From: a bacterium
Lineage (GTDB): Bacteria; Patescibacteriota; Minisyncoccia; Phycocordibacterales; VMGT01
DNA length: 64,000 nucleotides
Reading direction: 5' to 3'
Assembly: GCA_030697645.1 (NCBI GenBank)
Contig: JAUYPI010000006.1
Span: forward strand, 12,017 to 76,016
A program made the position numbers and the translations under genes. Below are positions 10,753-10,888 of this stretch, piece after piece. The notes under the pieces were generated by a model that saw nothing but the letters and a program-made list of their open reading frames with translations, was not told the origin of the DNA and made no database searches. Every line of letters starts with the position of its first letter. The stretch's first letter is position 1.

Positions 10753-10888
10753 GAAATTTCCAATTTTCAATTTTACAATTTCCAATCAATTTTCAATGTG
10801 TCAATGATGCAATGACGGACGACGTCGTGTTTGAAAATTGGGTCATTGCAAAATTGATTGAAAATTGAAAATTGAGACTTGAAAATTA
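10753..10888. repeat. Family-1 palindromic element, copy 4 (core in inverse orientation)
   Basis: Core reads CAATGACGGACGACGTCGTGTTTGAAAATTGG, the reverse complement of the core in copies 2, 3 and 5. Confidence 0.8.

Follow-up and report, generated by a model that had tools for sequence, protein, structure and literature searches.

An A+T-rich palindromic repeat occurs in both orientations at ribosomal-protein operon junctions in a bacterium of the candidate phyla radiation

Why should one and the same repeat point one way in front of most genes of a ribosomal-protein region and the opposite way in front of two of them? The question is raised by a 64,000-nucleotide stretch of contig JAUYPI010000006.1 (assembly GCA_030697645.1, positions 12,017 to 76,016), hereafter the window, which harbors a palindromic hairpin repeat of ~130 bp and ~80% A+T that we term family-1. 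An earlier reading made from the letters of the window (the sequence-only reading) had proposed that two family-1 copies, c4 between rpsK and rpsD and c10 between tuf and rpsJ, carry the reverse complement of the core found in the other nine. Our analysis demonstrates that both are full-length reverse complements of eight other copies. Family-1 itself is, in our judgement, probably a non-autonomous repeat resembling miniature inverted-repeat transposable elements (MITEs), a palindrome that inserts in either orientation and is co-transcribed as an A-U hairpin, although we hold this with some reserve.

Each family-1 copy consists of two arms of ~50 nt, made of 7-9 nt CAATTTT / AAAATTG units, and a GC-richer core (CAAACACGACGTCG...) between them; the arms are 71-82% complementary and lie 31-37 nt apart. 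Because the arms are mutual inverted repeats, the element is a near-palindrome and the wrong strand always earns some profile score, and in some copies, such as that of contig L010, the core is itself a perfect palindrome. The marks that break the symmetry are an extra ATTGA(A/C)ACATTG unit beside the core on one arm only and a GACCCAA junction. The 18-mer CCAATTTTCAAACACGAC, allowing up to three mismatches, matched the window 11 times, against 0.09 matches expected from shuffles, with eight matches on the + strand and three on the - strand (10824, 31276 and 34845). In total, the 64 kb contain 10 copies of 100-137 bp and one diverged copy, all of them between called genes.

To assign orientations, a profile was built from the aligned window copies and run with nhmmer on both strands (scores in bits). 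The inverted copies scored ~125-130 on the - strand against ~64 on the + strand: c4 (10754-10888), 129.7 vs. 64.2, and c10 (34779-34908), 124.5 vs. 63.9. Eight copies were forward, with 77-120 on the + strand and 41-77 on the - strand, and the margin of 21-65 bits between strands, over forward and inverted copies together, leaves orientation well defined. These are c1 (7583-7682, its right arm short, ahead of a GlxA-like gene whose ATG lies at 7690; 85.1 vs. 40.6), c2 (9635-9771, rpmJ / rpsM; 118.9 vs. 65.8), c3 (10173-10308, rpsM / rpsK; 110.9 vs. 54.6), c5 (11548-11679, immediately 3' of the rpsD stop codon and ahead of the promoter of rpoA; 120.0 vs. 54.6), c6 (14174-14290, rplM / rpsI, with core and right arm shortened; 77.0 vs. 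55.8), c7 (14763-14893, rpsI / grpE; 115.9 vs. 51.6), c8 (15500-15636, grpE / dnaK; 119.5 vs. 70.8) and c11 (37482-37614, rplD / rplW; 109.8 vs. 76.5). The ninth copy that had been counted as forward, c9 (31206-31344), did not bear out that count. It is a diverged relative that keeps the CAAACACGACGT core, has different arm units (CCAACAAGCTCCAAA), a near-symmetric core and a layered fold, and scores 40.2 on the - strand vs. 32.3 on the + strand, and we left its strand unassigned; its 18-mer reads on the - strand, as do the two genes that flank it.

The core strings originally quoted for the two inverted copies are present, CAATGACGGACGACGTCGTGTTTGAAAATTGG at 10810-10841 in c4 and CAATGACGGGCGAAGTCGTGTTTGAAAATTGG at 34831-34862 in c10. 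When reverse-complemented, c4 and c10 align end to end with the other copies, palindrome-breaking features included, and the alignment of c4 also takes in the distinctive left-arm motif CAAGTCTCAA. Since these asymmetric features align after reverse complementation, the whole element is inverted and the core has not been flipped alone. Any two of the eight full-length copies are 80-91% identical, and c4 is equally close, at 91%, to the forward copy c2 and to c10. This places c4 within the diversity of the family and rules out a separate subfamily of c4 and c10, the alternative under which an apparent inversion would have been spurious. The two inverted copies also have an identical stretch of 44 nt in one arm, and they are probably copies of each other or of one source.

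An independent mark of inversion is a 13-nt terminal extension, AAATTTCGT(G/T)CTA, common to c2, c3 and the inverted c4 (three matches vs. 0.22 expected). In c2 it occupies 9766-9778 on the + strand and its last base is the A of the ATG that follows; in c3 it reads AAATTTCGTGCTA at 10303-10315 on the + strand and finishes on the A of the start codon of rpsK. The extension of c4 lies on the - strand at 10747-10759, where the + strand is TAGCACGAAATTT and the TAG within it serves as the stop codon of rpsK, so that rpsK is exactly bracketed by the mutually inverted ends of c3 and c4. The position of this extension on the opposite side shows that c4 arose as an inverted copy of the whole unit, and an in-place inversion of the core only is ruled out for c4. 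For c10 a partial in-place inversion may have occurred, as its distal right arm looks forward.

We then asked how orientation relates to the flanking genes, a comparison that the sequence-only reading had put forward as a check on its claim. Among 26 orientable copies from ~15 genomes or contigs, 16 are forward and 10 inverted (binomial p = 0.33). The window contributes eight forward and two inverted copies (p = 0.11), and the copies outside it divide 8:8 (p = 1.0), the inverted ones including two in the S10 operon of contig L005, before rplB and before rpsC. One copy between divergent genes (in L011) and one with a symmetric core were left out of the count. GC skew is positive throughout the window and all genes flanking the oriented copies are on the + strand, so the directions of transcription and replication are inseparable there.

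Are the copies insertions? The ribosomal protein S4 of the window is 100% identical to one on a contig of GCA_034376905.1, and the next relatives are Paceibacterota / Parcubacteria of the candidate phyla radiation (CPR). In L001, an independent assembly, the elements point the same way as in the window at all sites. The gene order infA-rpmJ-rpsM-rpsK-rpsD-rpoA-rplQ-rplM-rpsI ... grpE-dnaK is kept in the distant relatives L015 and L016, whose S4 proteins are 52% and 60% identical to that of the window. Spacers at nearly all of these junctions are 3-30 nt long in L015, the exception being a spacer of 67 nt, promoter-like by eye, between rpsI and the next gene, and those of L016 are 2-35 nt long. 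The spacers of both genomes contain no hairpins, and the profile search of L015 gave no match. Compact spacers at the same gene order in these outgroups indicate that the compact state is ancestral and that the hairpins are insertions, the empty sites being taken from distant relatives (S4 52-60% identical) and not from strains.

Closer relatives, namely L002 (S4 81% identical), L004 (78%) and L003 (67%), have long hairpins at the same junctions, with arm units (TTCGAAAT, CAAATGNC, CAAAAC(G/T) and CTAGGC) that differ from those of the window, and the family-1 arm type is missing from relatives such as L002. L002 nevertheless keeps a AAACACGA(A)CGTCG core (AAACACGACG), at a subset of junctions other than that of the window, and the occurrence of the core in different slots points to turnover by mobility and not to divergence in place. 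On this comparison of spacers, the hairpins appear to turn over between species through replacement rather than by slow in-place divergence.

The family extends beyond this clade. A pattern scan of metagenome contigs returned 10 loci, with profile-confirmed copies in L005-L014. The exact 21-mer core had no match in species-representative genomes; a looser pattern of 18 specified bases gave 71 loci there, mostly chance matches in unrelated phyla, of which ~13 were confirmed by the profile, and viral contigs yielded one chance match only. Real copies are found in Magasanikbacteria, Nomurabacteria and Paceibacterota genomes and in several further metagenome-assembled genomes, and partial copies in Andersenbacteria and Nealsonbacteria. 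Host GC content ranges from 33 to 55%, and the ribosomal proteins of L005 share only 41-61% identity with their counterparts in the window. An unrelated genome of 41% GC, L026, likewise has its grpE|dnaK slot filled. Across hosts the CAAACACGACGT core is the best-conserved part, though the database search patterns required that core. The patchy distribution across lineages implies horizontal mobility.

The ends of the element are sharp, reading (TA)AATTTTCAAT...ATTGAAAATT(TA). The termini AATTT(T/C)CAAT...ATTG(A/G)AAATT are conserved in the window and in copies from ~15 other contigs, often with TA on either side. A look for target-site duplications, as the sequence-only reading had suggested, gave no more than a suggestive bracket: TA...TA frames 8 of the 10 window copies in flanks that are AT-rich, and the search found no repeat beyond TA. 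Deletion in silico of an element plus one TA leaves the T-ATG start context typical of the clade, and at c4 it gives rpsK the TAA stop that the gene also has in L003, L015 and L016. The TA bracket hints at a mechanism of the IS630/mariner type. Elements are also nested within one another: an outer GC stem (CCACCCACC/GGTGGGTGG) carries c10 in its loop, c9 lies within an outer CAAAAC-unit hairpin, one element of L002 is a hairpin within a hairpin, and the cores of L041 and L050 carry inserts; half-elements and interrupted copies also exist. The empty compact sites, the patchy hosts and the nested hairpins all agree with the mobile insertion that had been offered as one explanation of the two orientations.

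The element can form a strong hairpin on either strand. Every copy tested, in either orientation, forms a stem of ~50 bp, mostly A-U, with a free energy of -31 to -47 kcal/mol and z-scores of -4 to -7 relative to dinucleotide shuffles. The inverted copies c4 (-45.3 kcal/mol, z -5.3) and c10 (-47.1 kcal/mol, z -6.8) fall in the same range as the forward copies c2 (-41 kcal/mol, z -6.0), c3 (z -4.0), c5 (z -4.3), c7 (z -6.3), c8 (z -6.2) and c11 (z -7.2). The reverse complement of the forward form folds better, and in 7 of the 8 forward copies of the window the majority orientation gives the weaker mRNA hairpin, a strand asymmetry that is a property of the element itself. In only 13 of 26 copies does the sense RNA fold more stably than its antisense, which gives no sign of a sense-strand G-U bias. 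When RNAalifold was applied to all 19 copies, the tandem arm units slipped out of register, and we used the eight well-aligned window copies; these showed no compensatory change in 35 consensus pairs, a test of low power as the copies are 80-91% identical. Arms paired no better with their own partners than with arms from other copies (27.8 vs. 29.2, permutation p = 0.99; 19 copies from several genomes). Taken together, the covariation, arm-swap and G-U results reveal no strand-specific RNA signal, in keeping with the earlier preference for a strand-symmetric role, at the level of DNA or double-stranded RNA, or for mobile insertion over a strand-specific RNA. Judged from these alignments, the pairing potential looks inherited from the palindromic design and not maintained copy by copy.

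At gathering thresholds Rfam 15 gave zero matches in the whole window, and in E-value mode it gave only matches of 20-32 bits, on both strands, to eukaryotic microRNA-precursor hairpins of a generic AU-rich kind. The terminator scan found none at the elements, the stems of which are A-U rich and ~50 bp long, without a U-tract in most copies. By these searches family-1 is neither a described RNA family nor an intrinsic terminator, and, with no compensatory change and no strand-specific pairing, it does not qualify as a conserved structured cis-regulatory RNA. Extrusion of a cruciform from duplex DNA is strongly disfavored for arms that are imperfectly complementary and 31-37 nt apart, which leaves a hairpin of single-stranded RNA or DNA as the likelier folded state.

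All 10 clear copies occupy spacers between co-directional + strand genes, in the clusters infA/rpmJ/rpsM/rpsK/rpsD/rpoA, rplM/rpsI/grpE/dnaK, tuf/rpsJ and rplD/rplW. The remaining junctions of these clusters mostly hold hairpins of other unit-repeat families (AGCTNTT, ACATTTGAC or GGAAAGTGG units), so that a unit-repeat hairpin is present at ~15 of 17 ribosomal-protein and chaperone junctions and at none of the convergent or divergent spacers of the window. Convergent gene ends have ordinary GC-rich terminators with T runs, and the recognizable promoters are of the classical TTGACA/TATAAT type. One of these, a perfect sigma-70-type promoter of rpoA (TTGACA-16-TATAAT, 11693-11720, + strand), lies just 3' of c5 and is the sole 12/12 consensus match in 7-18 kb; analogous promoters follow hairpins in L003 and L004, as judged by eye. 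The spacers are inside operons and, except at c5, contain neither a promoter nor a terminator, so the elements are probably present in the operon mRNA. The native genes of this clade have no Shine-Dalgarno sequence and, almost always, a T at position -1, with or without hairpins, and the same T-ATG context without hairpins in the outgroups indicates that hairpins are not needed for initiation in general.

Several other palindromes share the intergenic spacers of the window. Family 2 (AGCTNTT / AAGCT units) is found at 13324-13386, 17598-17712, 26314-26346 and 35317-35441, before rplQ, dnaJ, fusA (a half copy) and rplC, respectively, and the copy at dnaJ has a GC-rich hairpin nested within it. 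Single-copy tandem-unit hairpins, with units including ACATTTGAC, GGAAAGTGG and AATTTGGAAATTTGG, occupy 38028-38110, 39004-39090, 9440-9490, 31107-31387 and 32591-32801. The fourth of these is a three-layer nested palindrome, the outer arms of which resemble the CAAAAC-unit family of L003, and the fifth is a palindrome of ~200 nt. A long GC-rich hairpin at 25740-25850 (…GTCATTGCGAGCGGAGCGAAGTAATCCAG…GGATTGCCTCGTCGCTCCACTCCG…CTCGCAATGACGG…) is clearly homologous to positions 1640-1760 of L016, the 60%-identity relative, where it lies downstream of rpsD, and it is a second palindromic element common to different lineages.

The account that we favor for family-1 is the following. A non-autonomous, MITE-like element would have colonized, in one Paceibacterota clade, the short spacers between the cistrons of ribosomal-protein and chaperone operons, its copies inserting, or being copied, in either orientation. 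Mobilization would probably be carried out by a transposase acting in trans and targeting TA dinucleotides. With inverted-repeat arms, essentially the same hairpin would form either way in DNA and in mRNA, and neither orientation would be counter-selected. Once transcribed, the ~50-bp A-U stems could be cut by an RNase III-type enzyme or could serve as 3' stabilizers. Cutting would split the operon transcript into shorter mRNAs, with the A/U-rich 3' arm remaining as a leader. Enzymes of the RNase III type generically accept a duplex of ~50 bp, and by analogy with Correia elements and the intercistronic sites of phage T7 such cleavage, or the blocking of exonucleases at the stems, seems the likeliest molecular consequence. 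The 3' arm is always AUUGAAAAUU-like in either orientation, which would make any such effect orientation-independent. The folded stem may also, or instead, hold the upstream stop codon near the downstream start codon, which would make insertion tolerable at that position.

Several observations weigh against this account. The evidence for target-site duplication is the TA bracket, which c5 and c10 lack and whose TA, like AATT, belongs to the repeat unit. No transposase gene was found in the 64-kb window, and the search did not extend to longer elements with matching ends in public collections. The 8:2 distribution in this genome could hide a mild orientation preference. Above all, a hairpin stands at nearly every ribosomal-protein and chaperone junction, both in the window and in three related species, while the other spacers of the window have none; occupancy so near to complete would be surprising if the DNA were purely selfish, and it hints at either some function or a strong preference for these sites. 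One such function would be operon punctuation, in which junction hairpins recruited from fast-turning-over repeats are required as RNase III-type sites or as re-initiation bridges for internal cistrons without Shine-Dalgarno sequences. We consider this unlikely on present evidence; if true, it would parallel in a bacterium the way in which tRNAs or hairpins punctuate transcripts in mitochondria, with mobile palindromes, domesticated and usable in any orientation, as the building material.

The broader possibility that the hairpins are selected intercistronic RNA elements, acting in transcript processing, ribosome re-initiation or ribosomal-protein stoichiometry, spread and homogenized by gene conversion, and indifferent to orientation since the stem alone would matter, is somewhat likelier, although we would still bet against it. 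It would explain the restriction of hairpins to the cluster junctions and would accommodate related species that fill the same, conserved slots with different hairpin sequences, as well as the filled grpE|dnaK slot of the unrelated L026. The mosaic similarity of copies fits gene conversion, and in 6 of 10 copies a gap of 5-11 nt separates the base of the hairpin from the ATG, in front of genes that have no Shine-Dalgarno sequence. The outgroups, however, have the same start context and no hairpin, and the lack of compensatory covariation and of a sense G-U preference, together with a majority orientation that gives the less stable mRNA hairpin, runs counter to selection on the transcript. The L011 copy between divergent genes, the half-elements and the interrupted copies fit this explanation poorly as well. 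Strand symmetry without an RNA-specific signal would instead suit a role in the DNA, where arrays of 8-bp units and a palindromic CACGACGTCGTG-like core could bind a dimeric or nucleoid protein, or a cruciform could absorb supercoiling as proposed for REP/BIME. The strong conservation of the core, its perfect palindromy in some copies and the location of the elements in highly expressed operons of the window speak for such a role, which we regard as very unlikely all the same: the mismatched and separated arms disfavor extrusion, the spacing of 7-9 bp puts the units out of helix phase, no candidate binding protein was identified, and the conservation of the core is partly an ascertainment effect of the search patterns.

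Inverted repeats around an asymmetric core are also what would be expected of a phase-variation switch, in which the core flips between the arms and c4 and c10 represent the other state. The distal right arm of c10 fits this picture, being identical on the + strand over 31 nt, TTTCG included, to the forward right arm of c3, as would fit an inversion with breakpoints inside the arms. In c4, by contrast, the inversion takes in the non-palindromic extension TCGTGCTA, which has come to overlap the stop codon of rpsK; the orientations in L001 match those of the window at all sites; and with a core that contains no convincing promoter and a window that contains no invertase gene, a switch is scarcely credible. 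We likewise give little credence to the proposal that every gene is turned into a separate transcription unit by the elements acting as promoters or intrinsic terminators. Weak TTGAAA-17-GAAAAT matches do occur in the arms on both strands, and c5, with a real promoter just 3' of it, might terminate transcription of rpsD. These matches, however, reach only 9/12 and most have no T at position 1 of the -10 hexamer, whereas the real promoters of this genome (TTGACA/TTGCAT ... TATAAT/TATAGT) and its GC-rich terminators with T runs look different, and a U-tract is absent after most copies. Insertion of a MITE-like palindrome in either orientation remains the account that we prefer.

The window has further features in its operons and outside them. 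An open reading frame (ORF) of 185 aa at 12766-13323, with no family match and a third-position GC of 0.33 compared with 0.6-0.8 in its neighbors, begins 3 nt after rpoA and precedes rplQ; the rpoA-rplQ gap is only 6 nt in L015, and the gene therefore looks inserted into the operon. The S10 operon is disrupted, with 750 nt without a convincing ORF between rplC and rplD (36060-36809), and it stops after rplB, the place expected for rpsS being taken, in the region 39004-39534, by a NUDIX hydrolase gene. At 28896-28938 a perfect inverted repeat of 20 bp (ACGAAACTACTTTGAGAAGT / ACTTCTCAAAGTAGTTTCGT) encloses a 3-nt loop, in a long non-coding stretch between two GC-rich terminator-like hairpins with T runs.

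At 47530-55684 (sub-arrays 49920-50445, 53724-54650 and 55327-55684) there are ~20 tandem stem-loops with variable stems of 13-18 bp and loops of 31-37 nt, each loop with two conserved boxes, (A/G)CTA and, ~9 nt further on, T(T/C)CACTA, followed by ~10-12 nt, which fits the 'stem-loop arrays' of TIGR systems (PMC12045711). The adjacent ORF (47885-49915, 676 aa) has a weak match, below the cut-off, to the NCBIfam entry 'TIGR-Tas system RNA-guided endonuclease' (E = 2e-4) and a weak match to the IS110 transposase C-terminal domain. From these similarities the region is likely a divergent TIGR-Tas locus. Genes at ~42.9-55.3 kb, a region that includes an SNF2-methyltransferase fusion and the stem-loop arrays, have GGAGG-type Shine-Dalgarno sequences and no T at -1, opposite to the rest (1-40000) with its ribosomal-protein genes. 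Judging by these start contexts, 42900-55400 is probably a horizontally acquired island.

The close relatives L001-L004 are represented only by contigs of 1.2-8.3 kb, which begin or end in or beside hairpin spacers. The repeats therefore probably break up short-read assemblies in this clade, and they could also mislead the calling of gene start sites. Genomes of CPR/Patescibacteria are regarded as highly streamlined. In the present clade the ribosomal-protein operons, its most conserved and compact loci, are filled with several families of long palindromes, at least one of which is patchily common to Patescibacteria classes, implying horizontal movement. In the literature searched we found no description of MITE-like or REP-like repeats in CPR/Patescibacteria. 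If the hairpins are processed in mRNA, they would provide a handle on the expression of polycistronic mRNAs without Shine-Dalgarno sequences in these organisms, and the hairpin-punctuated ribosomal-protein operons of this clade merit study at the transcript level.

By the literature and Rfam searches family-1 appears not to have been described before, and the nearest kinds of element are the ERIC, Correia and RUP repeats, all below 200 bp. Occurrence in two orientations is expected of this element class, which makes the finding real and fairly ordinary; Hulton et al. in 1991 reportedly observed ERIC sequences in both orientations. Bacterial MITEs are A+T-rich and have terminal inverted repeats, TA at the termini and transcripts that form stem-loops (PMC2229807), and family-1 conforms to the class in its size (below ~300 bp), non-coding nature, copy number, terminal inverted repeats, and filled and empty sites. 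The ERIC/IRU elements of enterobacteria, imperfect palindromes of 127 bp, are alike in size, in their long stem-loop, in their location in transcribed intergenic spacers, where they are co-transcribed with the genes on either side, and in their TA-ended terminal inverted repeats (PMC2229807). They are unlike family-1 in having no sequence similarity to it, in belonging to another phylum, and in being neither composed of short tandem units nor extremely AT-rich. The orientation of ERIC affects mRNA stability (PMC2229807), whereas family-1 is known here from sequence alone. The Correia/NEMIS/CREE repeats of Neisseria are likewise MITE-like, 100-155 bp long, situated near or between genes, and provided with inverted-repeat ends, TA termini and a conserved core, and the stem-loop in their transcripts is bound or cleaved by RNase III (PMC2649163, PMC2229807). 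Correia ends create promoters and the Correia core has an IHF site, whereas family-1 has no convincing promoter, its arms are ~50 nt of tandem 7-9 nt units and a TA duplication is no more than suggested. RUP of pneumococcus and other MITEs mobilized by IS630 resemble family-1 in being AT-rich and ~100 bp long, in their terminal inverted repeats and TA targets, and in a tendency to insert into other repeats or mobile elements (PMC2229807); RUP differs in having a partner, IS630-Spn1, with matching ends and in not being concentrated in ribosomal-protein operons.

The REP/BIME/REPIN sequences are also extragenic palindromes between co-directional or convergent genes, often transcribed, with proposed roles in mRNA stabilization and supercoiling (PMC3733652). 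REPs, however, are 20-40 bp long and GC-rich with an unpaired GTAG or CGTC tag, as opposed to ~130 bp and ~80% A+T without a tag; with no terminal tag and no RAYT-like gene in the window, family-1 is not a REP or REPIN. Hairpin repeats of organelles offer another parallel: in sponge mitochondria, for example, several families occupy the intergenic spacers of a compact genome in either orientation and are regarded as selfish elements with a possible part in processing (PMC2800124). Such repeats differ in residing in organelles and in being usually GC-rich and shorter. In the early genes of phage T7, each junction has a stem-loop at which RNase III cuts the polycistronic transcript into individual mRNAs, a functional analogy for the mechanism proposed here. 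The T7 sites are unique evolved sequences and not mobile repeats, and their cleavage has been demonstrated, whereas that of family-1 is proposed. Relative to all of these systems, family-1 is distinguished by its arms of 7-9 nt tandem units, by a conserved GC-rich palindromic core common to families with different arms, by layered nesting, and by the near-saturation of ribosomal-protein operon junctions in a streamlined genome without Shine-Dalgarno sequences.

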